Source: Escherichia coli (GTDB lineage Bacteria > Pseudomonadota > Gammaproteobacteria > Enterobacterales > Enterobacteriaceae). From it: a stretch of DNA of 64,000 nt. The stretch lies in NCBI RefSeq assembly GCF_050920415.1, contig NZ_CP169309.1; one strand, given 5' to 3'. This document shows, piece after piece, positions 9,815-64,000 of the stretch. A model generated the notes under the pieces. The model made no database searches, was not told where the DNA came from, and was given only the letters and a program-made list of their open reading frames with translations. The position numbers and the translations under genes were made by a program. Positions within the stretch are counted from its first letter, which is position 1. The number at the start of each line of letters is the position of its first letter.

Positions 9815-9975
9815 ACGCTGAAACGGGAAAGCCCCTCCCGAGGAAGGGGCCTTAAATAAGGAAAGGGTCATGATGAAGTGGATCATCATCGTGGTGCTCT
9901 TAGTCGTTAGCTACCCAGCTTACTAAGACTACCAGGGCGGGGGAAACCCCGCTCTACCCTCACTCCTGAAAGTAT
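9815..9975 (-). ncRNA. Sib-family antisense sRNA (antitoxin), copy 1; boundaries approximate
   Basis: Inferred from the known Sib/Ibs geometry (sRNA fully overlaps the toxin ORF on the opposite strand); minus-strand hairpin GCCCCUUCC-UCG-GGAGGGGC followed by a U-containing tract near 9820-9845 could be its terminator. Confidence 0.4.
9870..9926 (+). CDS. Ibs-family type I toxin, copy 1 (18 aa: MMKWIIIVVLLVVSYPAY)
   Basis: ATG ATG AAG ... TAC TAA read directly; preceded by aaggaaagg Shine-Dalgarno; not in ORF track (below size cutoff). Resembles E. coli IbsA/IbsB peptides. Confidence 0.6.
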   Translation: MMKWIIIVVLLVVSYPAY

Positions 9976-10142
9976 GCCTTCACAATCAGATTGTCAATCC
10001 GCAGGCTTTGTAGTCTGCGATCCTGCCAGCAAATATTCTTTGCGAGACGTTACGCAATAATCACAGATGAAACTATTTTATCTACGCGTTAGCGATAGAC
10101 TGCATTCAGGGCAAAAGGAGGTAGGCCGCCGATTTCAGCGGG

Positions 10143-10303
10143 ACGCTGAAACGGGAAAGCCCCTCCCGAGGAAGGGGCCTTAAATAAGGAAAGGGTCATG
10201 ATGAAGATACTCATCATCGTGGTGCTCTTAGTCATTAGCTTACCGGCTTACTAAGACTACCAGGGCGGGGGAAACCCCGCTCTACCCTCACTCCTGAAAG
10301 TAT
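10143..10303 (-). ncRNA. Sib-family antisense sRNA, copy 2; boundaries approximate
   Basis: By position relative to Ibs copy 2, same repeat unit. Confidence 0.4.
10198..10254 (+). CDS. Ibs-family type I toxin, copy 2 (18 aa: MMKILIIVVLLVISLPAY)
   Basis: Same architecture as copy 1, 328 bp downstream. Confidence 0.6.
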   Translation: MMKILIIVVLLVISLPAY

Positions 10304-10470
10304 GCCTTCACAATCAGATTGTCAATCCGCAGGCTTTGTAGTCTGCGATCCTGCCAGCAAATATTCTTTGCGAGACGTTACGCAATAATCACATGTGAAA
10401 CTATTTTATCTGCAAGTTAGCGATAGACTGCTTGCATGGCGAAAGGAGGTAGGCCGCCGATTTCAGCGGG

Positions 10471-10631
10471 ACGCTGAAACGGGAAAGCCCCTCCCGAGGA
10501 AGGGGCCTTAAATAAGGAAAGGGTCATGATGAAGCTACTCATCATCGTGGTGCTCTTAGTTATTAGCTGGCCAGCTTACTAAGACTACCAGGGCGGGGGA
10601 AACCCCGCTCTACCCTCACTCCTGAAGTTAT
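10471..10631 (-). ncRNA. Sib-family antisense sRNA, copy 3; boundaries approximate
   Basis: By position relative to Ibs copy 3; the 5' flank of this unit is divergent so the sRNA may be altered. Confidence 0.3.
10526..10582 (+). CDS. Ibs-family type I toxin, copy 3 (18 aa: MMKLLIIVVLLVISWPAY)
   Basis: Same architecture; the distal part of this repeat unit diverges after the ORF. Confidence 0.55.
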   Translation: MMKLLIIVVLLVISWPAY

Positions 10632-24630: not shown

Positions 24631-26214
24631 TCACACCTCATACTCCATTTCGCCATCCTTATGCAGCGGAATAATCTGCACCTTCTGCACGCGATGGCTT
24701 TCCACCTGCAATGTTTTAAGCAAATAATCCCCCACCTGAACTTCTTCGCCAGGTTTTGGAATGCGCTGTAAATATTCCATCAGCAGCCCGGCAATGGTGT
24801 GATATTCACGTTTCTCATCCAGCGGCAGTGGTACATATTGCACCAGATCTTCCAGCGGCATATGACCATTCGCTGTCCAGGAACCGTCGGCATTTTTCTG
24901 AATATCATGACGGGCATCGATCTCTTCCACTTCGTTTGGCAAGTTACCAGCAATGGTTTCAGTGACGTCACTTAATGTCACAATCCCTTCCACCGAGCCA
25001 AACTCATCCACCACAAAAGCAAAGTGCGTGCGGGCATTACGGAACTGCTCCAGGGCAGGTAACAACGGTAAAGTTTCCGGGAACACCAGCGGCTGGCGAA
25101 TCAACACCCGCAGGTTGAGCGGTTCGCCACGCAGTGACTGTTGTAGCAGGTCGATAACGTGAACAACACCGAGCAAATCTTCTGCGTCATCGCCGTCGGT
25201 AACGACCAGACGCGTATGCTGATTTCGCTCCAGCAACTGGCGGATTTCTTCTTCCGGCGCGTTGAGATCGATATGCTCAATATCGTGGCGCGACGTCATA
25301 ATGCTGCTGACGGTACGCTGGTTAAGATTAAGTACCCGCTCAATCATCCGCCGTTCCTGCGGATTAAAGATCTGCTGGTTACCATAATCCACCAGCATGG
25401 ACGCGGTTTCGGCATCCAGTTCCGCATCTTCTTTTTGCCCGCTTAACAAGCGCATTACCGCTTCGGTAGTTCGCTGGCGCAGCGTCTGGTTAGCGGAGAG
25501 AAAACGTCGCCGGTTAAAGATGGCAAGTTGATTGAGCGCCTCGATCATTACCGAGAAACCAATGGCAGCATACAGATAGCCTTTCGGAATGACGAAGCCG
25601 AAACCTTCCGCCACCAGGCTAAAGCCAATCATCAACAGGAAACTTAGGCAGAGTATGACGATGGTCGGGTGACTGTTAACAAATTGCGTTAACGGCTTGC
25701 TGGCCATCAGCATCAGGCTGATCGCGATAACCACGGCGGCCATCATGACCAGTAAATGGTCGACCATCCCGACGGCAGTAATCACCGAGTCAAGTGAGAA
25801 GATGGCGTCCAGCACCACAATTTGCGTCACCACGCCCCAGAACTTCGCACCTTTGCGTTGCGTGGGGTTATTGCTGTCTTTCCCCTCCAGCCGTTCGTTC
25901 AACTCCATCGTGGCTTTGAACAGCAGGAAGAAACCACCAAACAGCATGATTAAGTCGCGGGCGCTAAAGGTAAACGAGCGGAAGCTGAACAGTGGTTGGG
26001 TCAGGGTGACCAGCCAGGAGATTGACGCCAGCAGTAACAGGCGCATTAACATTGCCAGCAGCAGCCCGGTAATCCGTGCGCGGTCGCGCTGCTTCGGCGG
26101 TAGTTTTTCGGCGAGGATGGCAATAAAGACCAGGTTATCAATGCCGAGGACCAGTTCGATCACAATCAGCGTGATTAACCCGGCCCAGATAGACGGATCG
26201 GCAATCCATTCCAT
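24631..26214 (-). CDS. yegH: TerC-family membrane protein with CBS and CorC/HlyC-type transporter-associated domains (YegH)
   Basis: ORF track frame is 549 aa; the likely start is complement(26212..26214) giving [18 protein letters not shown]... (~527 aa). Confidence 0.85.
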
Positions 26215-49787: not shown

Positions 49788-50681
49788 ATGACGAATTTAA
49801 AAGCAGTTATTCCTGTAGCGGGTCTTGGGATGCATATGTTGCCTGCCACTAAGGCGATTCCCAAAGAGATGCTACCGATCGTCGACAAGCCAATGATTCA
49901 GTACATTGTTGACGAGATTGTGGCTGCAGGGATCAAAGAAATCCTCCTGGTAACTCACGCGTCCAAGAACGCGGTCGAAAACCACTTCGACACCTCGTAT
50001 GAATTAGAATCTCTCCTTGAGCAGCGCGTGAAGCGTCAACTGCTGGCGGAAGTTCAGTCCATCTGCCCGCCGGGCGTGACCATTATGAACGTGCGTCAGG
50101 GCGAACCTTTAGGTTTAGGCCACTCCATTTTATGTGCACGACCCGCCATTGGTGACAATCCATTTGTCGTGGTACTGCCAGACGTTGTGATCGACGACGC
50201 GAGTGCCGATCCGCTGCGTTACAACCTTGCTGCCATGATTGCGCGCTTCAATGAAACAGGCCGTAGCCAGGTGCTGGCAAAACGTATGCCGGGTGACCTC
50301 TCTGAATACTCGGTCATCCAGACCAAAGAACCGCTGGATCGCGAAGGTAAAGTCAGCCGCATTGTTGAATTCATCGAAAAACCGGATCAGCCGCAAACAC
50401 TGGACTCAGACATCATGGCCGTTGGTCGCTATGTGCTTTCTGCCGATATTTGGCCGGAACTTGAACGCACTCAGCCTGGTGCATGGGGACGTATTCAACT
50501 GACTGATGCCATCGCTGAACTGGCGAAAAAACAGTCCGTTGATGCCATGCTGATGACAGGTGACAGCTACGACTGCGGTAAAAAAATGGGTTATATGCAG
50601 GCATTTGTGAAGTATGGACTACGCAACCTCAAAGAAGGGGCGAAGTTCCGTAAAGGGATTGAGAAGCTGTTAAGCGAATAA
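49788..50681 (+). CDS. galF: UTP-glucose-1-phosphate uridylyltransferase paralog GalF
   Basis: ORF track frame starts at 49776; the likely start is ATG at 49788 ([30 protein letters not shown]), 297 aa. Confidence 0.92.
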
Positions 50682-50939
50682 TGAAAATCTGACCGGATGT
50701 AACGGTTGATAAGAAAATTATAACGGCAGTGAAGATTCGTGGCGAAAGTAATTTGTTGCGAATATTCCTGCCGTTGTTTTATATAAACAATCAGAATAAC
50801 AACGAGTTAGCAATAGGATTTTAGTCAAAGTTTTCCAGGATTTTCCTTGTTTCCAGAGCGGATTGGTAAGACAATTAGCGTTTGAATTTTTCGGGTTTAG
50901 CGCGAGTGGGTAACGCTCGTCACATCGTAGGCATGCATG

Positions 50940-50978
50940 CAGTACTCTGGTAGCTGTAAAGCCAGGGGCGGTAGCGTG
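50940..50978 (+). promoter_or_regulatory. JUMPstart element with ops (GGCGGTAGCGTG) upstream of the O-antigen operon
   Basis: cagtactctggtagctgtaaagccaggggcggtagcgtg; ops at 50967..50978; ~75 bp upstream of rmlB. Confidence 0.75.
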
Positions 50979-51052
50979 CATTAATACCTCTATTAATCAA
51001 ATCTGGAGCAGTCTATTTCACAGCATGCTCTCTGGCTATATGGAATAAAAAA

Positions 51053-52138
51053 GTGAAGATACTTGTTACTGGTGGCGCAGGATTTATTGGTTCTGCTGTT
51101 GTTCGTCACATAATAAATAATACGCAAGATAGTGTTGTTAATGTCGATAAATTAACCTACGCCGGAAATCTGGAATCGCTCGCTGAAATTTCTGATTCTG
51201 AACGTTATTCATTTGAGCATGCAGATATCTGTGATGCCGCAGCGATGGCTCGTATTTTTTCACAACACCAGCCAGATGCGGTAATGCACCTGGCGGCTGA
51301 GAGCCACGTTGACCGCTCAATAACTGGTCCGGCGGCATTCATTGAAACTAATATTGTAGGTACTTACGTACTTTTAGAAGCAGCGCGCAATTATTGGTCT
51401 GGTCTGGATGATGAAAAGAAAAAAAACTTTCGCTTTCATCATATTTCTACTGATGAAGTGTATGGTGACTTACCCCATCCGGATGAAGTAAATAGCAATG
51501 AAACATTGCCGTTATTTACGGAAACGACAGCATACGCGCCAAGTAGTCCATATTCTGCTTCTAAAGCGTCAAGCGATCATTTGGTTCGCGCATGGAAACG
51601 TACTTATGGTTTACCGACAATCGTGACTAATTGCTCGAACAACTATGGCCCTTATCATTTCCCGGAAAAGCTTATTCCACTGGTTATTCTTAATGCACTG
51701 GAAGGTAAGGCATTACCTATTTATGGCAAAGGAGATCAAATTCGCGACTGGTTGTATGTAGAGGATCATGCTCGTGCGCTATATACCGTAGTTACTGAAG
51801 GTAAAGCGGGTGAAACCTATAACATTGGCGGACACAACGAAAAGAAAAACATCGATGTTGTGCTGACTATTTGTGATTTGTTGGATGAGATAGTCCCGAA
51901 AGAGAAATCTTATCGTGAGCAAATTACTTATGTTGCTGATCGCCCAGGACACGATCGCCGTTATGCGATTGATGCTGAGAAGATTAGTCGCGAATTGGGT
52001 TGGAAACCACAGGAAACGTTTGAGAGCGGGATTCGGAAGACAGTAGAATGGTACCTGTCCAATACAAAATGGGTTGATAATGTGAAAAGTGGCGCCTATC
52101 AATCGTGGATTGAACAAAACTATGAGGGACGCCAGTAA
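51053..52138 (+). CDS. rmlB: dTDP-glucose 4,6-dehydratase
   Basis: 361 aa; [35 protein letters not shown]. Confidence 0.93.
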
Positions 52139-53037
52139 TGAATATCCTCCTATTCGGCAAAACAGGGCAGGTAGGTTGGGAACTACAGCGTGCTCTGGCA
52201 CCTCTGGGTAATTTGATTGCTCTTGATGTTCACTCCACTGATTATTGTGGTGATTTTAGTAATCCTGAAGGTGTAGCTGAAACCGTAAGAAGCATTCGGC
52301 CTGATATTATTGTCAACGCAGCCGCTCACACCGCAGTTGACAAAGCAGAATCAGAACCGGAGTTTGCACAATTACTTAACGCGACAAGTGTCGAAGCGAT
52401 TGCGAAAGCAGCCAATGAAGTCGGCTCCTGGGTTATTCACTACTCTACTGACTACGTATTTCCGGGAACCGGTGAAATACCATGGCAGGAGGCGGATGCA
52501 ACCGCACCGCTAAATGTTTACGGTGAAACCAAGTTAGCCGGAGAAAAAGCATTACAAGAGCATTGTGTGAAGCACCTTATTTTCCGGACCAGCTGGGTCT
52601 ATGCAGGTAAAGGAAATAACTTCGCCAAAACGATGTTACGTCTGGCAAAAGAGCGTGAAGAATTGGCCGTTATTAACGATCAGTTTGGTGCGCCAACAGG
52701 TGCTGAGCTGCTGGCTGATTGTACAGCACATGCCATTCGTGTCGCACTGAATAAACCAGAAGTCGCAGGCTTGTACCATTTGGTAGCCAGTGGTACCACA
52801 ACCTGGCACGATTATGCTGCGCTGGTTTTTGAAGAGGCGCGCAAAGCAGGCATTCCCCTCGCACTCAACAAACTCAATGCGGTACCAACAACAGCCTATC
52901 CTACACCAGCTCGTCGTCCACATAACTCTCGCCTTAATACAGAAAAATTTCAGCAGAACTTTGCGCTTGTCTTGCCTGACTGGCAGGTTGGCGTGAAACG
53001 CATGCTCAACGAATTATTTACGACTACAGCAATTTAA
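52138..53037 (+). CDS. rmlD: dTDP-4-dehydrorhamnose reductase
   Basis: 299 aa; [20 protein letters not shown]. Confidence 0.92.
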   Translation: MNILLFGKTGQVGWELQRALAPLGNLIALDVHSTDYCGDFSNPEGVAETVRSIRPDIIVNAAAHTAVDKAESEPEFAQLLNATSVEAIAKAANEVGSWVIHYSTDYVFPGTGEIPWQEADATAPLNVYGETKLAGEKALQEHCVKHLIFRTSWVYAGKGNNFAKTMLRLAKEREELAVINDQFGAPTGAELLADCTAHAIRVALNKPEVAGLYHLVASGTTTWHDYAALVFEEARKAGIPLALNKLNAVPTTAYPTPARRPHNSRLNTEKFQQNFALVLPDWQVGVKRMLNELFTTTAI

Positions 53038-53094
53038 TAGTTTTTGCATCTTGTTCGTGATGGTGGAACAAGATGAATTAAAAGGAATGATGAA

Positions 53095-53970
53095 ATGAAA
53101 ACGCGTAAAGGTATTATTTTAGCAGGTGGTTCTGGTACTCGTCTTTATCCTGTGACTATGGCAGTCAGTAAACAGCTGTTACCTATTTATGATAAACCGA
53201 TGATCTATTACCCGCTCTCTACACTGATGTTGGCGGGTATTCGCGATATTCTAATTATAAGTACGCCACAGGATACTCCTCGTTTTCAACAACTGCTGGG
53301 TGACGGGAGTCAGTGGGGCCTTAATCTTCAGTACAAAGTGCAACCGAGCCCAGATGGTCTTGCGCAGGCATTTATCATCGGTAAAGAGTTTATCGGTAGT
53401 GATGATTGTGCTCTGGTTCTCGGTGATAATATCTTCTACGGTCACGATCTGCCGAAGTTAATGGATGCCGCTGTTAACAAAGAAAGTGGTGCAACGGTAT
53501 TTGCCTATCACGTTAATGATCCTGAACGCTATGGTGTCGTTGAGTTTGACAAAAACGGTACGGCAATTAGCCTGGAAGAAAAACCGCTACAGCCAAAAAG
53601 TAATTATGCGGTAACTGGGCTTTATTTCTATGATAACGACGTTGTAGAAATGGCAAAAAATCTTAAGCCATCTGCCCGAGGTGAACTGGAAATTACCGAT
53701 ATTAATCGTATCTATATGGAACAGGGGCGTTTGTCTGTCGCTATGATGGGGCGTGGTTATGCATGGCTGGATACAGGGACGCATCAAAGCCTTATTGAAG
53801 CAAGTAACTTCATTGCCACCATTGAAGAGCGTCAGGGATTAAAAGTATCTTGCCCGGAAGAGATTGCTTATCGTAAAGGGTTTATTGATGCTGAGCAGGT
53901 AAAAGTATTAGCCGAACCGCTTATCAAGAATCAATATGGTCAATATTTGCTGAAAATGATCAGCGAATAG
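53095..53970 (+). CDS. rmlA: Glucose-1-phosphate thymidylyltransferase
   Basis: 291 aa; [16 protein letters not shown]. Confidence 0.93.
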
Positions 53971-53984
53971 TATGTGGGAACTCA

Positions 53985-54398
53985 ATGATGGATATTAAAT
54001 TAATCTCTTTGCAAAAACATGGGGATGAGCGTGGTGCATTAATTGCTCTTGAAGAGCAACGAAATATACCTTTCGAAGTCAAAAGAATATATTACATACT
54101 CGAGACTCTTAAGGGAGTAAGACGCGGATTTCATGCGCACAAGGTTACTCGTCAGTTAGCTATTGTAGTCAAGGGAGCTTGTAAATTTCATCTGGATAAT
54201 GGTAAAGAAACAAAGCAGGTGGAACTTAATGATCCAACAATTGCGTTGCTGATAGAACCCTATATATGGCATGAAATGTATGATTTTAGTGATGATTGTG
54301 TGCTGCTTGTAATTGCGGATGATTTCTATAAAGAGTCTGATTATATACGCAATTATGATGATTTTATTAGAAGAGTAAATTCAATTGAGAATTCATAA
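53985..54398 (+). CDS. fdtA: dTDP-4-keto-6-deoxyglucose 3,4-isomerase (FdtA/QdtA-type, WxcM-like cupin)
   Basis: 137 aa; [13 protein letters not shown]...[11 protein letters not shown]...RGFHAHK is typical of FdtA-type isomerases. FdtA versus QdtA cannot be separated by eye. Confidence 0.7.
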
Positions 54399-54852
54399 GC
54401 TAAGTGACGTCCAGACAACATCAATTGGTGATGGAACAACTATCTGGCAGTTTGTTGTAATACTAAAAGGTGCTGTAATTGGTAATAATTGCAACATCTG
54501 TGCAAATACCTTGATTGAAAATAACGTTGTAATTGGTAACAATGTCACAGTCAAAAGCGGTGTGTATATTTGGGATGGCGTTAAAATAGAGGATAATGTT
54601 TTTATTGGTCCTTGTGTAGCATTTACAAATGATAAGTATCCTCGCTCTAAAGTCTATCCTGATGAATTTTTGCACACAATAATACGCAAAGGAGCATCAA
54701 TAGGTGCTAATGCAACCATCCTGCCAGGAATTGAAATTGGTGAAAAAGCAATCGTTGGTGCGGGGAGTGTCGTAACCAAAAATGTACCGCCATGCGCAAT
54801 AGTAGTAGGTAATCCAGCTCGATTTATTAAATGGGTAGAGGATAATGAATAA
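54385..54852 (+). CDS. fdtC: dTDP-3-amino-3,6-dideoxyhexose N-acetyltransferase (hexapeptide repeat, FdtC-like)
   Basis: 155 aa; hexapeptide repeats (IGNNCNI..., IGNNVTV..., IGANATI...); lies between the isomerase and the aminotransferase. Confidence 0.65.
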
Positions 54853-55951
54853 AATTGATTTTTTAGATCTTTTTGCAATTAACCAGCGACAGCACAAAGA
54901 ATTAGTCTCTGCGTTTAGTAGGGTGCTAGATTCTGGTTGGTATATCATGGGCGAAGAACTTGAGCAGTTCGAGAAAGAGTTCGCAGAATACTGTGGAGTT
55001 AAGTATTGCATTGGTGTAGCAAATGGCCTTGATGCGTTGATACTAGTATTGAGGGCATGGAAAGAACTCGGCTATCTAGAAGACGGTGACGAGGTATTAG
55101 TACCGGCAAATACATATATTGCTTCTATTCTTGCTATAACAGAGAACAAACTTGTTCCTGTTCTTGTTGAACCAGATATAGAAACTTATAATATTAATCC
55201 TGCTTTAATTGAAAATTACATTACGGAAAAAACTAAAGCAATATTACCGGTTCACTTATATGGTCTATTGTGCAATATGCCAGAAATTAGTGCAATCGCA
55301 AGAAAATATAATCTGTTGATTCTTGAAGATTGTGCACAAGCACATGGTGCAATACGTGATGGTCGCAAAGCTGGAGCTTGGGGGGATGCTGCAGGATTTA
55401 GTTTTTATCCAGGAAAAAACCTTGGAGCTTTGGGGGATGCGGGAGCTGTTACTACAAATAATGCAGAATTATCCTCAACTATAAAAGCTTTGCGAAATTA
55501 TGGGTCACATAAGAAATATGAAAATATTTATCAGGGATTGAATAGTCGATTGGATGAACTGCAAGCAGCCTTATTGCGTGTAAAAATCCATACATTACCG
55601 GAAGATACTGCGATTCGGCAAAGGATTGCTGAAAAATATATTCGTGAAATAAAAAACCCTGCGATTACGTTACCAGTGTACGAAGGCCAAGGTGCGCACG
55701 TTTGGCATTTATTTGTAGTAAGAATCGCTAATCGTGAAAAATTCCAGTCATACTTATCAGAGAAGGGTATCCAAACCTTAATTCACTATCCATTACCACC
55801 CCATAAGCAGCAAGCATATCAAAATATGTCTAGTCTTAGCCTTCCAATTACTGAGCAAATTCATGATGAAGTCATTTCTTTACCTATAAGTCCGGTAATG
55901 AGTGAAGATGATGTCAATTATGTAATCAAAGTGGTCAATGATTACAAGTAA
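54845..55951 (+). CDS. fdtB: dTDP-3-keto-6-deoxyhexose 3-aminotransferase (DegT/DnrJ/EryC1 family, FdtB-like)
   Basis: 368 aa; PLP-aminotransferase family features; gene context. Confidence 0.7.
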
Positions 55952-57213
55952 TGAAAAAATTTCTTCAGGTAACTATATTATCCGCTATCTATACATTCAT
56001 TAAAATGATTGCGGGTTTTATCATCGGTAAGGTAGTAGCAATTTATACAGGGCCATCAGGGGTAGCAATGCTTGGCCAAGTGCAAAGTTTAATCACAATA
56101 GTTGCAGGTACTACTTCTGCACCTGTAAGCACCGGTCTTGTTCGATATACTGCGGAAAATTGGCAAGAAGGACAGGAAGCATGCGCGCCATGGTGGCGCG
56201 CATGCTTAAGGGTTACTCTGTTTTTATTCTTGCTTATTATTCCCGTTGTTATTTTATTGTCGAAAAATATTAGCGAGTTACTTTTTAGCGATGGACAATA
56301 CACATGGTTAATCATTTTCGCATGTTGTATATTGCCATTCTCCATTTTAAATACATTGATCGCTTCAGTTTTAAATGGTCAACAATTCTATAAGCAATAT
56401 ATATTGGTTGGGATGTTTTCTGTATTCATTTCTACTATGTTTATGATTTTGTTGATTGTAGCTTATAATCTTAAAGGTGCATTGATTGCCACGGCTATAA
56501 ATAGTGCTATTGCTGGTCTTGTATTAGTTTTATTTTGTCTCAATAAATCTTGGTTTAGATTTAAATATTGGTGGGGTAAAACGGATAAAGACAAAATTAT
56601 AAAAATTATTCATTATACTCTGATGGCTTTGGTTTCTGTTATCTCCATGCCTACAGCATTGATGTGTATTAGAAAAATATTGATTGCTAAAACTGGTTGG
56701 GAGGATGCAGGGCAATGGCAGGCCGTATGGAAGATATCTGAGGTCTATCTTGGTGTTGTGACAATTGCTTTGTCAACATATTTCTTACCAAGATTGACAA
56801 TTATAAAAACAAGTTTCCTTATAAAAAAAGAGGTAAATAGTACTATATTATACATAGTATCTATTACTTCATTCATGGCGTTGAGTATCTATTTATTCCG
56901 CGATTTGGTAATAACAGTTTTATTTACTGAACAGTTTCGCTCAGCTCGTGAATTATTTTTGTTACAACTCGTAGGGGATGTAATAAAAATTGCTGGTTTT
57001 CTTTATGCATACCCTCTTCAAAGTCAGGGGCATACTAAACTATTCATCAGTTCAGAAGTGATTTTTTCTATGCTCTTTATCGTTACCACCTATATTTTTG
57101 TTGTAAATTATGGAGTACATGGTGCTAACATAAGTTATGTCATTACATATAGTTTATATTTTGTGTTTGCATTTGTGTTTACTAATTTTATTAATGTCAG
57201 AAGAATTAATTAA
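55951..57213 (+). CDS. wzx: O-antigen flippase Wzx
   Basis: 420 aa with ~12 predicted TM segments; AT-rich codon usage; position in the O-antigen cluster. Confidence 0.8.
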   Translation: MKKFLQVTILSAIYTFIKMIAGFIIGKVVAIYTGPSGVAMLGQVQSLITIVAGTTSAPVSTGLVRYTAENWQEGQEACAPWWRACLRVTLFLFLLIIPVVILLSKNISELLFSDGQYTWLIIFACCILPFSILNTLIASVLNGQQFYKQYILVGMFSVFISTMFMILLIVAYNLKGALIATAINSAIAGLVLVLFCLNKSWFRFKYWWGKTDKDKIIKIIHYTLMALVSVISMPTALMCIRKILIAKTGWEDAGQWQAVWKISEVYLGVVTIALSTYFLPRLTIIKTSFLIKKEVNSTILYIVSITSFMALSIYLFRDLVITVLFTEQFRSARELFLLQLVGDVIKIAGFLYAYPLQSQGHTKLFISSEVIFSMLFIVTTYIFVVNYGVHGANISYVITYSLYFVFAFVFTNFINVRRIN

Positions 57214-57222
57214 AAACAGAGG

Positions 57223-58278
57223 TTGAAATTGAAAATAATTATACCTGTCTTAGGATTTGGCAGGGCTGGTGGTGAAAGAGTTCTTTCTAAGCTGGCAACT
57301 GAATTGATGAATTATGGACATGATGTAAGTTTTGTTGTTCCAGATAATAGAACTAATCCATATTATGCTACCACAGCAAAAATCGTCACGAGTAAATCTA
57401 GTCAAAACCGTGTAAAAATATTGAGAATCATTAAAAATTACTATAATCTGTGGCGTAAATGCATAGAATTAAATCCTGATGCTGTAGTTGCTAGTTTTCA
57501 TTTGACTGCCTATCTTGTCGCATTATTACCAATCACCCGTCGTAAGAAATATTATTATATTCAGGCGTATGAAGTTAATTTTTTTGATAATATAATATGG
57601 AAATTAATAGCGGGTTTAACATATTATTTACCGCTTAAAAAAATACTAAATAGTCCTAATTTGCTTCCTCATAAACATGATGATTTTATAGGAGTAGTTC
57701 CTGCAGGAGTAGATTTAAACGTTTTCTATCCGAAACCATCAAATAGGTTATTAAATGGTCACACATCAATAGGGATTATTGGTAGAAAAGAGAAGCACAA
57801 AGGAACTAGCGAAATTATTTCAGTATTGTGTTCACTGGAAAATAAAGTTGGAATTATAATTAATATTGCGATCTATCTTGAAGAAGTTGATAAGGAGCGT
57901 TTAATTGCTGCCGGGTTTCAGGTTAATTTTTTTCCGATTACTTCTGATTTAGAATTGGCATCTTTTTATCGAAGCAATGACATCATGATTGCAGCTGGGT
58001 TAATTGAAGATGGCGCTTTCCATTATCCTTGTGCTGAATCAATGGCTTGTGGTTGTCTTGTTATTTCAAATTATGCGCCACTTACTGAAACTAACAGTGT
58101 ACTTAAATTAGTCAAGTTTGATGCTTGCAAACTTGGTAAAGCAATTAATCTTTGTCTCAATCTTGACCTAGAAGAAAAAAGCAAAGAAATCCAATCTAAT
58201 ATTTCTGTGTTGAATAAATATGACTGGAAAATTGTTGGTGAAACTTTCAATAGTTTATTGTTAGATGCAAATAAATAG
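57223..58278 (+). CDS. O-antigen glycosyltransferase (GT4-like)
   Basis: 351 aa; E-x7-E-like region EDGAFHYPCAESMACGCLVI. The track start is TTG at 57223; a second TTG at 57229 has better spacing from the agagg Shine-Dalgarno. Confidence 0.7.
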   Translation: MKLKIIIPVLGFGRAGGERVLSKLATELMNYGHDVSFVVPDNRTNPYYATTAKIVTSKSSQNRVKILRIIKNYYNLWRKCIELNPDAVVASFHLTAYLVALLPITRRKKYYYIQAYEVNFFDNIIWKLIAGLTYYLPLKKILNSPNLLPHKHDDFIGVVPAGVDLNVFYPKPSNRLLNGHTSIGIIGRKEKHKGTSEIISVLCSLENKVGIIINIAIYLEEVDKERLIAAGFQVNFFPITSDLELASFYRSNDIMIAAGLIEDGAFHYPCAESMACGCLVISNYAPLTETNSVLKLVKFDACKLGKAINLCLNLDLEEKSKEIQSNISVLNKYDWKIVGETFNSLLLDANK

Positions 58279-58298
58279 TATACGTTGATGGGGAAAAT

Positions 58299-58856
58299 AT
58301 GAATATTGTTAAAACTGATATTCCAGATCTGATCGTTCTTGAACCAAAAGTGTTTAGTGATGAACGCGGCTTTTTTATGGAGAGTTATAATCAGATTGAA
58401 TTTGAGAAGACAATAGGAAGGCACGTAAATTTTGTTCAGGATAATCATTCAAAATCTAGTAAAGGCGTACTACGTGGGTTACATTATCAATTAGCACCGT
58501 ATGCACAGGCTAAATTAGTTCGATGTGTTGTAGGTCAGGTATTTGATGTTGCTGTTGATCTTAGAAAAAATTCACCAACGTTCAAAAAATGGTTTGGAAT
58601 AACCCTTTCCGCAGAAAATAAACGACAATTATGGATACCTGAAGGATTTGCTCATGGTTTCTTGGTGACCAGTGATGAAGCTGAGTTCATTTATAAAACA
58701 ACGAACTACTATGCTCCTGGTCATCAGCAAGCAATTATTTACAATGATCCTATTTTAAACATCGATTGGCCTTTCTGCAGTAGTGCTCTGTCATTATCGC
58801 AAAAAGATCAAGAAGCAAAATTATTTTCAGAATTATTGGACAGTGAACTGTTCTAA
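58299..58856 (+). CDS. rmlC: dTDP-4-dehydrorhamnose 3,5-epimerase
   Basis: 185 aa; FSDERGFFMESY...LRGLHYQ...IPEGFAHGF; separated from rmlBDA by other genes. Confidence 0.9.
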   Translation: MNIVKTDIPDLIVLEPKVFSDERGFFMESYNQIEFEKTIGRHVNFVQDNHSKSSKGVLRGLHYQLAPYAQAKLVRCVVGQVFDVAVDLRKNSPTFKKWFGITLSAENKRQLWIPEGFAHGFLVTSDEAEFIYKTTNYYAPGHQQAIIYNDPILNIDWPFCSSALSLSQKDQEAKLFSELLDSELF

Positions 58857-58923
58857 TAAAGTGTGCCACCTTATCCGTCTGAAGGATAGGTGGTTGCTTA
58901 TATTTTTTGAGTATGTTTGTATA

Positions 58924-59886
58924 ATGACAGAAAATAGTCCGAAATATAAACACGATAAAAGCTTAATAAGTTTTATCTACTTATTTTTTATATTTACACT
59001 TATTGTAGGCTTCATTATCGCAAATACCCAGTTTTTGGGGCGAAGTAGAGACTATGATAATTATATACAGATCTTTTCTGGTGAAGAAGGGGAGGGGGTT
59101 CTTGAATTATTTTATCGCGGATTGATGTTAATAACGACCAGCTATGAAATTATCATTTTTATAATTTTAACATGTTCTTTTTTTATAAAGGCAAGGTTTC
59201 TTGCTAACTATTCGCGTAATTTTTCAGGCTTGACCTTATTCTTTGTTTATTATGCAAGCGTTGCACTTTGGGTTTTAGATTATACTCAATTCAGAAATGG
59301 TCTATGTATTTCCATTTTAATGTTTTCCGTATACTATTTATTTATAAATAAACCGACTTATTTTTATTTCTCGCTATTATGTGCAATTGCAACTCATTGG
59401 TCTGCTTTGCCTTTTTTGCTTTTATATCCTTTTGTCTATTCAAAAAAAATAAGACACCTTGGTTATTTTTGTTTCAGTATTCTTGTTTTGATTGCGATCT
59501 CAGGAGAAGGAAAAGAGATCATTTCTTTTATAAGAAATTTTGGAGTGGGACAAAAAATAGGAAACGAAGCTGGTGTAAATTTAATAAATTCATTATCCCT
59601 TACCGCTATTTTCTGGTTTGTTATTAGTTACATATCAAGCATTGGAAATGAAAGGAGAAATTTAAGACTTTTCTTTTGTTATGGTGTCATGCAATACGTG
59701 ACTTTTAGCCTTTTCTCTCTACCTGTTATGGCTTTCCGTATTTTGGAAATGTATTTTTTCCTTATGTTAACCATTGGGGTGTTTATTAAGCAAAAAAAGA
59801 ATTATTATTTTGTTTTTTGCAAAGTGTTAATTTTATTGTATCTAACATACTATTATCATATGGTTTTTGGAGTGATTAATGTGTAA
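58924..59886 (+). CDS. wzy: O-antigen polymerase Wzy (candidate)
   Basis: Polytopic membrane protein. The ORF track frame (58783) overlaps rmlC; the internal ATG at 58924 (MTENSPKYKHD...) avoids the overlap. Very AT-rich. Confidence 0.6.
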   Translation: MTENSPKYKHDKSLISFIYLFFIFTLIVGFIIANTQFLGRSRDYDNYIQIFSGEEGEGVLELFYRGLMLITTSYEIIIFIILTCSFFIKARFLANYSRNFSGLTLFFVYYASVALWVLDYTQFRNGLCISILMFSVYYLFINKPTYFYFSLLCAIATHWSALPFLLLYPFVYSKKIRHLGYFCFSILVLIAISGEGKEIISFIRNFGVGQKIGNEAGVNLINSLSLTAIFWFVISYISSIGNERRNLRLFFCYGVMQYVTFSLFSLPVMAFRILEMYFFLMLTIGVFIKQKKNYYFVFCKVLILLYLTYYYHMVFGVINV

Positions 59887-60766
59887 GGCTAAGGTGTTGG
59901 CTATAATTGTTACTTACAACCCGGAAATTATTCGTTTGACGGAATGTATTAACTCTTTAGCCCCACAAGTTGAGAGAATAATTCTTGTAGATAATGGCTC
60001 AAATAATAGTCATTTGATAAAAAATATCATTATTAATAACCTTGAAATTATTTTGCTTTCGGAAAACAAAGGCATTGCATTTGCTCAGAACCATTGTGTT
60101 AAGAAGGGTCTGGAAGCAAAAGAGTTTGACTATTTATTTTTCTCAGATCAGGATACTTGCTTTCCTAGCGATGTTATTGAAAAACTTAAGAGTACATTTA
60201 CGAAAAATAATAAAAAAGGTAAAAATGTTGCTTGTGCTTCTCCTTTTTTTAAAGACCATCGTTCAAATTATATGCATCCGTCAGTCAGCCTAAATATTTT
60301 TACGAGTACAAAAGTTATATGTAGTGAAGTAGACGATGATCTTTATCCCTCGCATGTTATTGCTTCTGGGATGTTAATGTCTCGCGAGGCATGGCGCGTC
60401 GTCGGACCATTTTGTGAAAAACTCTTTATAGACTGGGTTGATACAGAATGGTGTTGGCGTGCATTAGCTAATAGTATGATTATTGTTCAGACACCATCAG
60501 TCATCATTTCTCATGAACTTGGGTATGGGCAGAAAATTTTTGCTGGTCGATCTGTTACAATACATAATTCTTTCAGAAATTTTTATAAAATACGTAATGC
60601 AATATACTTAATGCTGCATTCAAATTATAGCTTCAAGTATCGTTATCATGCTTTTTTTCATGCGACAAAGAATATTGTATTTGAAATTTTATATTCGAAA
60701 GAAAAATTAAATTCACTGAAGGTTTGTTTTAAAGCTGTACGTGATGGTATGTTCAATAATTTTTAA
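59879..60766 (+). CDS. O-antigen glycosyltransferase (GT2; rhamnosyltransferase-like)
   Basis: 295 aa; IIVTYNPE...VDNGSNNS...FSDQDTCF (GT2 DxD-type motifs). Confidence 0.7.
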   Translation: MCKAKVLAIIVTYNPEIIRLTECINSLAPQVERIILVDNGSNNSHLIKNIIINNLEIILLSENKGIAFAQNHCVKKGLEAKEFDYLFFSDQDTCFPSDVIEKLKSTFTKNNKKGKNVACASPFFKDHRSNYMHPSVSLNIFTSTKVICSEVDDDLYPSHVIASGMLMSREAWRVVGPFCEKLFIDWVDTEWCWRALANSMIIVQTPSVIISHELGYGQKIFAGRSVTIHNSFRNFYKIRNAIYLMLHSNYSFKYRYHAFFHATKNIVFEILYSKEKLNSLKVCFKAVRDGMFNNF

Positions 60767-60796
60767 TACAAAAATAGTTAGGCTCAAGGTGTTTAA

Positions 60797-61873
60797 ATGG
60801 AAGAAAATAATATGAAGACGGTCGCTGTAGTTGGCACAGTGGGTGTTCCTGCTTGTTATGGTGGGTTTGAATCACTTGTTCAGAATCTAATTGATTATCA
60901 ATCTGATGGTATACAATATCAGATATTTTGCTCTTCAAAAAAATATAATAAAAAATTAAAAAATTATAAAAATGCAGAATTAATCTATTTGCCGATAAAT
61001 GCCAATGGCGTCTCTAGCATAATTTATGACATTATGTGTTTAATTATTTGTTTATTCAAAAGGCCAGATGTTGTTTTAATATTGGGGGTATCTGGTTGTT
61101 TATTTCTACCAATTTATAAACTATTTTCAAAATCAAAGATCATTGTCAACATCGATGGGCTTGAATGGCGTAGAAATAAATGGGGAACGTTTGCTAAGAA
61201 ATTTCTCAAAATATCTGAGGCGATATCTATTAGAATAGCTGATATTATCATTTCAGATAATCAAGCAATAGCTGATTATGTGGAAAATAAGTACAATAAA
61301 AAAAGCGTAGTTATAGCTTATGGGGGAGATCATGCTACTAATCTTAGTACACCGATAGACGATGATCAAAAAAAAGATGGTTATTATTTGGGGCTTTGTA
61401 GGATAGAGCCTGAGAATAATATAGAAATGATTTTGAATGCCTTCATTAATACAGATAAAAAAATTAAATTTATGGGTAATTGGGATAATAGCGAGTATGG
61501 GCGCCAGCTAAAAAAATATTATTCAAACTATCCAAATATCACACTACTAGAACCTAACTATAATATCGAAGAACTTTATAAACTAAGAAAAAATTGCCTT
61601 GCATACATTCATGGACACTCGGCTGGTGGAACAAACCCTTCTTTAGTTGAAGCGATGCATTTTAATATTCCTATTTTTGCTTTCGATTGTGACTTTAATC
61701 GTTACACAACTAATAATTTAGCTCATTACTTTAATGATTCTGAACAACTGACCTCATTAGCAGACAGTTTGTCTTTTGGAAATCTTAAATGTCAAGTATT
61801 AGATTTAAAAAAATATGCTGAAGATATGTATAACTGGAGGCATATAGCTGCTATGTATGAATCTATTTATTAA
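60797..61873 (+). CDS. O-antigen glycosyltransferase (GT4-like with N-terminal DUF1972-like region)
   Basis: 358 aa; E-x7-E-like NPSLVEAMHFNIPIFA. Confidence 0.7.
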   Translation: MEENNMKTVAVVGTVGVPACYGGFESLVQNLIDYQSDGIQYQIFCSSKKYNKKLKNYKNAELIYLPINANGVSSIIYDIMCLIICLFKRPDVVLILGVSGCLFLPIYKLFSKSKIIVNIDGLEWRRNKWGTFAKKFLKISEAISIRIADIIISDNQAIADYVENKYNKKSVVIAYGGDHATNLSTPIDDDQKKDGYYLGLCRIEPENNIEMILNAFINTDKKIKFMGNWDNSEYGRQLKKYYSNYPNITLLEPNYNIEELYKLRKNCLAYIHGHSAGGTNPSLVEAMHFNIPIFAFDCDFNRYTTNNLAHYFNDSEQLTSLADSLSFGNLKCQVLDLKKYAEDMYNWRHIAAMYESIY

Positions 61874-62054
61874 ACGCATTAACAATAATATAATTGACCT
61901 TATATAGCTATCAGAGTAAAAATGTAACGCTGATTTTTTTGTTAAATGATGCGCATTATATATTTAATGATTAAAATACTCTTGATCAAATAAAACTATT
62001 TAATTAATAATGTAAAATTTCATTATGCTATTTAAGATGTGAAAAATAACTTAA

Positions 62055-62125
62055 ATAAATGATGGGATATATTTATATTATCCCGGTTATAGACAAGCCC
62101 AGGGAAAGATCATCAGAAGTACACT
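62055..62125 (+). mobile_element. Fossil fragment homologous to the 5' end of the ISAs1/H-repeat transposase gene
   Basis: tgatgggatatatttatattatcccggttatagacaagcccagggaaag is ~83% identical to 62258..62306 of the downstream transposase gene. Confidence 0.55.
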
Positions 62126-62244
62126 TTTTGTACTAAATAATTCGCATTTTATGTTTAAAAATATGAGATATTCCTCATTACCTGAAGCTGTTTTTTATTG
62201 CTTATACATGATCAAATACTCCTTACATAATTAAGGAGAACAAA

Positions 62245-63381
62245 ATGGAACTTAAAAAATTGATGGAACATATTTCTATTATCCCCGATTACAGACAAGC
62301 CTGGAAAGTGGAACATAAATTATCGGATATTCTACTGTTGACTATTTGTGCCGTCATTTCTGGTGCAGAAGGCTGGGAAGATATAGAGGATTTTGGAGAA
62401 ACACATCTCGATTTTTTGAAGCAATATGGTGATTTTGAAAATGGTATTCCTGTTCACGATACCATTGCCAGAGTTGTATCCTGTATCAGTCCTGCAAAAT
62501 TTCACGAGTGCTTTATTAACTGGATGCGAGATTGCCATACTTCAGATGATAAAGACGTCATCGCAATTGATGGAAAAACACTCCGGCATTCTTATGACAA
62601 GAGTCGCCGTAAGGGAGCGATTCATGTCATTAGTGCGTTCTCAACAATGCACAGTCTGGTCATCGGACAGATCAAGACGGATGAGAAATCCAATGAGATT
62701 ACAGCCATCCCTGAACTTCTTAACATGTTGGATATTAAAGGGAAAATTATCACAACTGATGCGATGGGTTGCCAGAAAGATATTGCAGAGAAGATACAAA
62801 AACAGGGAGGTGATTATTTATTCGCTGTAAAAGGAAATCAGCGTCGGCTTAATAAAGCCTTTGAAGAAAAATTCCCACTGAAAGAATTAAATAATCCAGA
62901 GCATGACAGTTATGCAATTAGTGAAAAGAGTCACGGCAGAGAAGATATCCGTCTTCATATTGTTTGCGATGACCCTGATGAACTTATTGATTTCACGTTT
63001 GAATGGAAAGGACTGAAAAAATTATGCGTGGCAGTCTCCTTTCGCTCAATAATAGCAGAGCAAAAGAAAGAGCCCGAAATGATGGTCAGATATTATATCA
63101 GTTCTGCTGATTTAACCGCTGAGAAGTTTGCGACAGCGATTTGAAATCACTGGCACGTGGAGAATAAGCTGCACTGGCGTCTGGACGTGGTAATGAATGA
63201 AGACGATTGTAAAATAAGAAGAGGAAATGCAGCAGAATTATTTTCTGGGATACGGCACATTGCTATTAATATTTTGACGAATGATAAGGTATTCAAGACA
63301 GGATTAAGACGTAAGATGCGAAAAGCAGCCATGGACAGAAACTATCTCGCGTCAGTCCTTGCGGGGAGCGGGCTTTACTAG
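62245..63381 (+). pseudogene. ISAs1-family (H-repeat-associated) transposase gene interrupted by a single in-frame TGA at 63142..63144
   Basis: ORF track shows 62245..63144 and 63157..63381 in the same frame. Read through the stop they give ~378 codons, typical of H-repeat/ISAs1 transposases (...[29 protein letters not shown]...). Confidence 0.8.
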
Positions 63382-63453: not shown

Positions 63454-64000
63454 ATGAACTTTAAGAATATAATTAGAATAATACTACCTTTTTTTATTTT
63501 CTTGAGTATTTTACTTTACTCAGGAAGGGCGGATAGTGTTTTGTTATTTACTATCGAATACACACTTGCAAGTATGGCAATCTTTCTGATAAAAAGAAAG
63601 TTTATAAGCAATATCTTGTGGGGGATTTATCTCTCAATTTTAGGTGTACAGGCAGCATCGCTATTTAGTTCAGGACAATATTTGATGCCTCTTGCCTTGT
63701 CGAATGCTGCAGAAGTTGAATCGCTAGGCATTGGCGAGGTAATCAAGGTTTTTTCTATTTTTATTTTATTTGTTATAGTTTCATTCGTTACGATGCCTTC
63801 TGGTGCTCTAGTCGGCCGTATTAAATATTATAAATTTAATTTTTTCTGTATAGTATTATTGCTTGTGTGTTCTTTCATAAGCACGGGACCGGTATATGCT
63901 TTTTATGAAACAGCAAAATTGTACTATTTACAGCAAACCTTTAAGCCTAGTGAGAAGATCGGTGATGCCGGGAAATCTTTTTTAAAAACAAGTGTTTTTA
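63454..64000 (+). CDS. 3'-truncated ORF encoding a polytopic membrane protein of unknown function
   Basis: ATG at 63454, open to the window end (182 codons, no stop), so absent from the ORF track. MNFKNIIRIILPFFIFLSILLYSG... with >=4 hydrophobic helices; AT-rich. Confidence 0.55.
   Translation, partial: MNFKNIIRIILPFFIFLSILLYSGRADSVLLFTIEYTLASMAIFLIKRKFISNILWGIYLSILGVQAASLFSSGQYLMPLALSNAAEVESLGIGEVIKVFSIFILFVIVSFVTMPSGALVGRIKYYKFNFFCIVLLLVCSFISTGPVYAFYETAKLYYLQQTFKPSEKIGDAGKSFLKTSVF

Follow-up and report, generated by a model that had tools for sequence, protein, structure and literature searches.

A probable serogroup O2 O-antigen gene cluster with exchanged rhamnose genes at its 5' end in an Escherichia coli chromosome

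The locus described here is an O-antigen gene cluster of Escherichia coli, located in a stretch of 64,000 nucleotides (contig NZ_CP169309.1 of the RefSeq assembly GCF_050920415.1) that was analysed as a whole and is referred to below as the window. Between positions 50940 and 61873, a JUMPstart element with an ops sequence is followed by twelve co-directional, tightly packed genes on the plus strand, which are bounded by galF and by the remnant of an ISAs1-family transposase gene. The gene order is rmlB-rmlD-rmlA-fdtA-fdtC-fdtB-wzx-GT4-rmlC-wzy-GT2-DUF1972 GT4, where GT4 and GT2 denote glycosyltransferase (GT) families. Judging from sequence comparison, the locus is very probably the Wzx/Wzy-dependent O-antigen gene cluster of E. 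coli serogroup O2, that is, a member of the O2/O50 group with the O2 allele. The features, identified from open reading frames (ORFs) and family searches, are as follows.

49788-50681, plus strand: galF, conserved 5' flank of the O-antigen locus (TIGR01105, 689 bits, cut-off 659; galF in RefSeq)
50940-50978, plus strand: JUMPstart element with ops (38 of 39 positions of the consensus; exact ops GGCGGTAGC at 50967-50975)
51053-52138, plus strand: rmlB (rfbB), deoxythymidine diphosphate (dTDP)-glucose 4,6-dehydratase (NF007490, 795 bits, cut-off 649)
52138-53037, plus strand: rmlD (rfbD), dTDP-4-dehydrorhamnose reductase (NF007440, 655.6 bits, cut-off 308)
53095-53970, plus strand: rmlA (rfbA), glucose-1-phosphate thymidylyltransferase (NF012024, 670.8 bits, cut-off 588)
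53988-54398, plus strand: fdtA, isomerase of the cupin 3,4-ketoisomerase type (Pfam FdtA, PF05523, E = 1.8e-46; 100% identical to the allele of an O2:K2:H1 strain)
54385-54852, plus strand: fdtC, N-acetyltransferase for dTDP-3-amino-3,6-dideoxy-D-galactose (dTDP-D-Fuc3N), left-handed beta-helix (intact ORF of 155 amino acids, hexapeptide acetyltransferase family)
54845-55951, plus strand: fdtB, pyridoxal phosphate (PLP)-dependent dTDP-3-keto-6-deoxyhexose 3-aminotransferase of the DegT family (5u1z, E = 2e-142; QdtB 3frk, E = 1e-119)
55951-57213, plus strand: wzx, O-unit flippase (RefSeq "O2/O50 family O-antigen flippase"; WzxE-like, E = 1.6e-57)
57229-58278, plus strand: GT4 (Pfam Glyco_transf_4, E = 5.6e-6, with a weak Glycos_transf_1 match; RefSeq "glycosyltransferase family 4 protein")
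58299-58856, plus strand: rmlC (rfbC), dTDP-4-dehydrorhamnose 3,5-epimerase (TIGR01221, 262.9 bits, cut-off 155.75)
58924-59886, plus strand: wzy, O-antigen polymerase, intact (Pfam EpsG, E = 1.1e-17; RefSeq "O2/O50 family O-antigen polymerase")
59879-60766, plus strand: GT2 (Pfam PF00535, E = 7e-12)
60797-61873, plus strand: DUF1972-type GT4, named wekS in the reference O2 cluster (Pfam DUF1972, E = 7.5e-32, and Glycos_transf_1)

These searches bear out all the gene calls made in an earlier sequence-only reading of the same DNA, which had listed the rml genes, an isomerase, an acetyltransferase, an aminotransferase, wzx, wzy and the GTs. All four enzymes of the rhamnose pathway, RmlA, RmlB, RmlC and RmlD, are present, and each scores above its curated NCBIfam cut-off. 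The gene content and order are those of the E. coli O2/O50 cluster between galF and gnd. The JUMPstart and ops sequences would constitute an RfaH-dependent antitermination signal for the operon; the 39-bp JUMPstart consensus is reportedly that of Hobbs and Reeves 1994. A scan of positions 50600-62400 for promoter and terminator consensus sequences gave no excess over shuffled sequence (51 promoters versus 49.1 and 5 terminators versus 7.6) and is uninformative on the promoter of the operon.

At least from position 26000 to 64000, the window matches the chromosome of E. coli MFDS1022581 (NZ_CP169399.1) at 100% identity, and in this chromosome RefSeq places gnd, ugd and wzzB just beyond the point where the window ends. 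Of the genes for the Wzx/Wzy pathway, wzx and wzy are in the window, and wzzB for the chain-length regulator is downstream in the identical genome. The cluster of strain N96 is essentially the same, with about five single-base differences in 13.3 kb. At least 80% of the cluster is found in 131 of 5426 complete E. coli genomes, and RefSeq gives the wzx and wzy of the carriers the O2/O50 family names quoted above, including those in the 100%-identical record. The earlier proposal of an O-antigen containing rhamnose (Rha) and 3-acetamido-3,6-dideoxy-D-galactose (D-Fuc3NAc), such as that of E. coli O2, is thus confirmed by these names, by the identity of 99.2-100% across the serogroup-specific block and by the histidine codon in fdtB, and these comparisons demonstrate both the gene identities and the O2 genotype.

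The nearest described system is the published E. coli O2 cluster (reference strains G1674, GU299792, and EU549863), assigned to the O2/O50 group by Iguchi 2015 and DebRoy 2016, which has the same gene order and the same location between galF and gnd. When compared gene by gene with the genome of a serotyped O2:K2:H1 strain, the nine genes from fdtA through the last GT (wekS) are 99.2-100% identical, with wzx at 99.5% and wzy at 99.4% nucleotide identity, and fdtB has the O2-type histidine. The window differs in rmlB (94.4%), rmlD (89.4%), rmlA (91.1%) and galF (92.2%; 95.7% to N96), and it has an ISAs1 gene with an internal stop. The spacer between galF and rmlB is 94.6% identical. The divergence is restricted to galF, this spacer, rmlB, rmlD and rmlA (89-95%) and to ISAs1, all of which are generic. 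From the per-gene identities, it follows that the serogroup-specific block is that of O2/O50 and that the generic 5' module alone has been exchanged. Since rmlBDA and galF are only 89-95% identical to the compared O2:K2:H1 strain and the serogroup-specific block is more than 99% identical, the 5' end is recombinant, and the sequence places the recombination breakpoint between rmlA and fdtA. The present set of rml alleles is found at 100% in just 2 complete genomes (2 of the 131 carriers). The next best match (97.3%) comes from an O cluster that is unrelated and encodes an identical RmlD protein. That the rml genes are mosaic where they form the 5' end of O clusters in E. coli is well known. 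The recombinant 5' module in an O2 cluster is a rare variant and a minor new point; otherwise, the cluster has already been described and is ordinary apart from the rhamnose genes swapped in at its front end.

The base composition follows the same division. The G+C content is 0.526 in window positions 1-49700 (the colanic acid region), 0.442 in rmlBDA and 0.334 in positions 53985-61873, from fdtA to the last GT. At third codon positions (GC3), it is 0.22-0.29 in the central cluster genes and 0.55-0.58 in wcaL, wcaM and galF. The AT-richness from fdtA onward, which had been judged by eye, is real once computed. Horizontal acquisition is a long-known general property of all E. coli O-antigen clusters and is not peculiar to the present one.

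In contrast to the other three rhamnose genes, rmlC stands apart from rmlBDA. Its position between the first GT4 and wzy, pointed out in the sequence-only reading, is clear from the coordinates. Its G+C content of 0.353 and GC3 of 0.253 are similar to those of the neighbouring genes, and its identity to the O2:K2:H1 allele is 99.8%. At an identity of at least 95%, the gene is found in about 132 genomes only, essentially the O2 carriers, and all the remaining rmlC genes of E. coli reach 60-80% identity. The encoded protein shares 71% identity with a typical RmlC encoded next to rmlA. A minor new point is that the rmlC in this displaced position is, judged by its sequence, an allele of low G+C that is specific to O2; the displaced arrangement itself is already present in the published O2 reference cluster. 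In view of this composition and distribution, rmlC is part of the imported serogroup-specific block, and rmlBDA are part of a shared, recombining 5' module.

The difference between O2 and O50 lies in fdtB. Both serogroups share the main chain, and O50 is without the D-Fuc3NAc branch because one histidine of FdtB is changed to arginine (Yang et al. 2018; PMC7685785). The clusters are more than 99% identical, and wzx and wzy are unable to separate O2 from O50 (PMC5293828). In the Table S4 alignment of the same work, O50 sequences read CCGGTTCGCTTATATGG (CGC) and O2 sequences read CCGGTTCACTTATATGG (CAC). The work also mentions a second discriminating single-nucleotide polymorphism (PMC5293828). 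The window contains the O2 string at positions 55247-55263, and the O50 string is absent from it. The codon at 55253-55255 is CAC and encodes His137, which is located in a VHLYG motif and is invariant in five solved homologues. The lysine that forms the Schiff base with PLP, the residue replaced in 5u21, is also present and is conserved in the solved homologues. Since the diagnostic codon is in the state that the literature gives for O2, the window is genotypically O2.

The pathway to dTDP-D-Fuc3NAc is known from Aneurinibacillus thermoaerophilus, where FdtA, FdtB and FdtC, members of the same three enzyme families, serve the S-layer glycan. The best solved relative of the window isomerase is the FdtA of this organism (2pa7, E = 6e-42). 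In its motif GFHAHK, the window isomerase keeps the two histidines that were mutated for the entries 2pae, 2pak and 2pam. A second signature was derived from PDB sequences. The window isomerase has Arg15 (DERG) and His95 (IWHEM), FdtA likewise has an Arg/His pair, and wild-type QdtA (4o9e), the isomerase for 3-acetamido-3,6-dideoxy-D-glucose (D-Qui3NAc), has Tyr17 and Arg97, a rule that derives from two characterised enzymes. The engineered QdtA 4zu7 has Arg17 and His97 and outscores wild-type QdtA against the window isomerase. The 17/97 residue pair is reported to steer the stereochemistry of the product (Thoden et al. 2015). How FdtA could be told from QdtA was a point raised in the earlier reading; when checked on the PDB sequences, the window protein is in the FdtA state, and this outcome is supportive. 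The isomerase thus fits the FdtA (galacto-forming) type as far as its residues go, and the residue pair is supportive, not conclusive.

The third enzyme of this branch, FdtC, is unusual in its start. The gene begins with TTG at 54385, overlapping the end of fdtA, and its ORF contains zero methionine codons. The acetyltransferase is of the short form, with about 155 amino acids, and is closest to the N-terminal domain of the bifunctional WxcM-like protein 4mzu and to 7s43. The alignment with the solved chain 4mzu pairs residues 3-154 of FdtC with residues 2-153 in the N-terminal acetyltransferase domain of 4mzu (E = 7e-71). Both of the fragments into which RefSeq divides the gene lie within one uninterrupted frame of 155 codons. 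A true pseudogene was considered and rejected, as the ORF is free of stops and frameshifts and matches solved enzymes from one end to the other. The pseudogene flag is almost certainly an artefact, caused by the unusual start codon, of annotation by the Prokaryotic Genome Annotation Pipeline (PGAP), and probably a systematic one; it is a further minor new point. It is judged an artefact because the ORF is uninterrupted and because O2 strains make Fuc3NAc, for which FdtC is needed.

Several observations weigh against the assignment to O2 and have to be set beside its rivals. The O2 call for the strain has genotype as its basis. Compared with the O2:K2:H1 allele, the FdtB of the window has three substitutions, V294I, L305S and A364V, and in each of the three RefSeq records that were inspected, one of them being that of the serotyped O2:K2:H1 strain, fdtC is annotated as two "incomplete" pseudogene fragments. 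There are three GTs for four glycosidic bonds, so either one enzyme doubles up or a further gene lies elsewhere. The GT assignment draws on the anomers and linkages that Jansson et al. 1987 are reported to have found in the O2 unit. The first rival takes the cluster to be that of O50, with the same backbone, a dead Fuc3NAc pathway and a polymer that has no side branch. The inability of wzx and wzy to separate clusters that are more than 99% identical (PMC5293828), reflected in the joint O2/O50 naming in RefSeq, is compatible with this, as are the three FdtB substitutions relative to one O2 strain. However, the O50 reference cluster (strain U18-41, AB811624, KY115227), which has the same genes in the same order, encodes arginine (CGC) where the window has His137 (CAC), and it is this arginine that abolishes the D-Fuc3NAc branch (PMC7685785). 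The three substituted positions, 294, 305 and 364, vary among the five solved homologues, and both His137 and the PLP lysine are kept. In addition, the O50 fdtB allele is absent from all of the 129-131 carrier genomes. An O50 cluster is therefore very unlikely. A new serogroup, or a non-functional (rough) variant, could be read into the overall cluster identity of 97.3% to most carriers and into the RefSeq flags on fdtC and ISAs1. The per-gene comparison leads to the rejection of this overall figure as a sign of a new serogroup: the divergence is confined to the generic 5' genes, the spacer and ISAs1, and the serogroup-specific genes are 99.2-100% identical. The fdtC ORF is open and can be aligned with solved enzymes along its entire length, a strain serotyped as O2:K2:H1 receives the same pseudogene call, and wzy is intact in the window. 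This second rival is highly improbable.

The remaining rival concerns the amino sugar and holds that the branch makes dTDP-D-Qui3NAc by the QdtA/B/C pathway in place of dTDP-D-Fuc3NAc. The margin between the isomerases is small, as QdtA reaches 124-131 bits and FdtA (2pa7) 146 bits, so that QdtA is nearly as similar (131 versus 146 bits). QdtB and QdtC are also significant matches, and the aminotransferase and acetyltransferase families alone do not fix the configuration at C4. Against these points, the isomerase has Arg15 and His95 as in FdtA, in contrast to Tyr17 and Arg97 in wild-type QdtA, which the engineered 4zu7 outscores. Moreover, the cluster shares more than 99% identity with the one of O2, the unit of which contains D-Fuc3NAc (PMC7685785, PMC8969423). 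The repeat unit of O2 has a mass of 828.34 Da and consists of 3 Rha, N-acetylglucosamine (GlcNAc) and Fuc3NAc (PMC8969423). This composition matches the two sugar pathways encoded in the cluster and thus supports D-Fuc3NAc independently of the isomerase residues. A Qui3NAc branch is improbable in the extreme, and the O2 reading, with D-Fuc3NAc as the amino sugar, is the one followed below.

For the O2 cluster, the following course of events can be proposed, in which the two sugar pathways and the Wzx/Wzy machinery are shown by the protein families found. Transcription would read through from the galF-rmlB spacer, aided by RfaH at JUMPstart/ops. RmlA and RmlB form dTDP-4-keto-6-deoxy-D-glucose, which RmlC and RmlD convert into dTDP-L-rhamnose. 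FdtA would isomerise the same intermediate to the 3-keto galacto form, and amination by FdtB and acetylation by FdtC would then give dTDP-D-Fuc3NAc. Assembly would start on GlcNAc-PP-undecaprenol, made by WecA, which is encoded elsewhere. The DUF1972 GT4 may add the first, beta-linked rhamnose, the GT2 may add both alpha-linked rhamnoses and the other GT4 may add the alpha-D-Fuc3NAc branch. The pentasaccharide unit would be flipped by Wzx and polymerised by Wzy, with WzzB setting the chain length.

The assignment of the GTs to linkages is something that we infer from stereochemistry. In the CAZy classification, the DUF1972 GT4 is retaining, which gives beta-Rha from dTDP-beta-L-Rha, GT2 enzymes are inverting and GT4 enzymes are retaining. 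The O2 unit reportedly contains beta-L-Rha-(1->4)-GlcNAc, two alpha-L-Rha bonds and an alpha-D-Fuc3NAc branch (Jansson et al. 1987). The DUF1972 GT4 of the window matches NF046071 (Cps2T, beta-1,4-rhamnosyltransferase) with E = 1.8e-59 and 201.5 bits, which is below the equivalog cut-off of 500, and it is accordingly not an equivalog. Its motif, GGTNPSLVE, is similar to those of GacB and WchF (GGTNPGLLE and GGTNPSLLE). GacB, a DUF1972 GT4 with the conserved GGTNPxLLE motif, is a proven retaining beta-1,4-rhamnosyltransferase acting on GlcNAc-PP-undecaprenol (PMC6802508). Like the streptococcal retaining beta-1,4-L-rhamnosyltransferases GacB, WchF and Cps2T, the last GT of the window combines an N-terminal DUF1972 with a C-terminal GT-B domain (Glycos_transf_1) and has a closely similar motif. 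It differs from them in the sub-cut-off score (201 versus 500 bits), the Gram-negative host and the O-antigen context, and the likeness is one of sequence. By analogy, it may be a retaining beta-1,4-L-rhamnosyltransferase acting on GlcNAc-PP-undecaprenol, probably in a GacB-like manner.

On the TIGR01556 "rhamnosyltransferase" model, the GT2 reaches 179 bits, slightly short of the cut-off at 200.55. A single GT is probably responsible for two different Rha-Rha linkages in O2 and O50 (PMC7685785). The GT2 may be an inverting alpha-L-rhamnosyltransferase that probably forms both Rha-Rha bonds. By elimination and stereochemistry, the GT4 at 57229-58278 would be the alpha-D-Fuc3NAc transferase. 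The combined picture is one in which the three GTs split the four bonds by stereochemistry, the DUF1972 GT4 being a Gram-negative counterpart of GacB, the GT2 making both alpha-Rha-Rha bonds of two linkage types and the GT4 attaching alpha-D-Fuc3NAc, all in a rare recombinant O2 cluster that has its own divergent rmlC behind foreign rmlBDA and galF. Taken as a whole, this picture has about an even chance of being correct.

Downstream of the last GT, two decayed features precede gnd.

62245-63381, plus strand: transposase pseudogene of the ISAs1 family (H-repeat), with an internal stop in its translation that RefSeq also reports ("internal stop") (NF033564, E = 3.9e-99)
63454-64000, plus strand: 5' part of a split sulfatase-like, phosphoglycerol-transferase-like gene, annotated in RefSeq as two consecutive "sulfatase-like hydrolase/transferase" coding sequences in different frames

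An ISAs1 transposase gene between the last GT and gnd is also found in the O2:K2:H1 strain, where it is intact. The sulfatase-like gene runs past the end of the window (L003 14598-16225), lies upstream of gnd and has a second half that weakly matches OpgB (E = 4e-6). It is split in the O2:K2:H1 strain too. The O2 unit is not known to have a phospho-substituent, and the sulfatase-like gene is probably what decay has left of an older cluster. Neither this gene nor ISAs1 is needed for the known O2 structure. In the O2:K2:H1 strain, C 237-04, wzy is frameshifted according to RefSeq (L002 14228-15189), either through a sequencing or assembly error or in a poorly polymerising strain. Elsewhere in the window, at 9870-10582 between mdtA and yegL, RefSeq annotation of the identical genome has three type I toxin genes of the Ibs family in tandem, each 57 nt long, which are ordinary E. 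coli content.

The present analysis changes nothing in the existing knowledge of the O2 cluster, and it does bear on how the cluster is recognised. Because rmlBDA recombines freely, the whole-cluster identity of 97.3% understates the match to O2. The His137 codon of fdtB separates O2 from O50, which typing by wzx and wzy does not. The pseudogene flag on fdtC could mislead the automated prediction of Fuc3NAc synthesis. Extraintestinal and avian pathogenic E. coli have O2 among their main serogroups, and the conjugate vaccines ExPEC4V and ExPEC10V include it as a component; for this reason the correct recognition of O2 from sequence has practical value.

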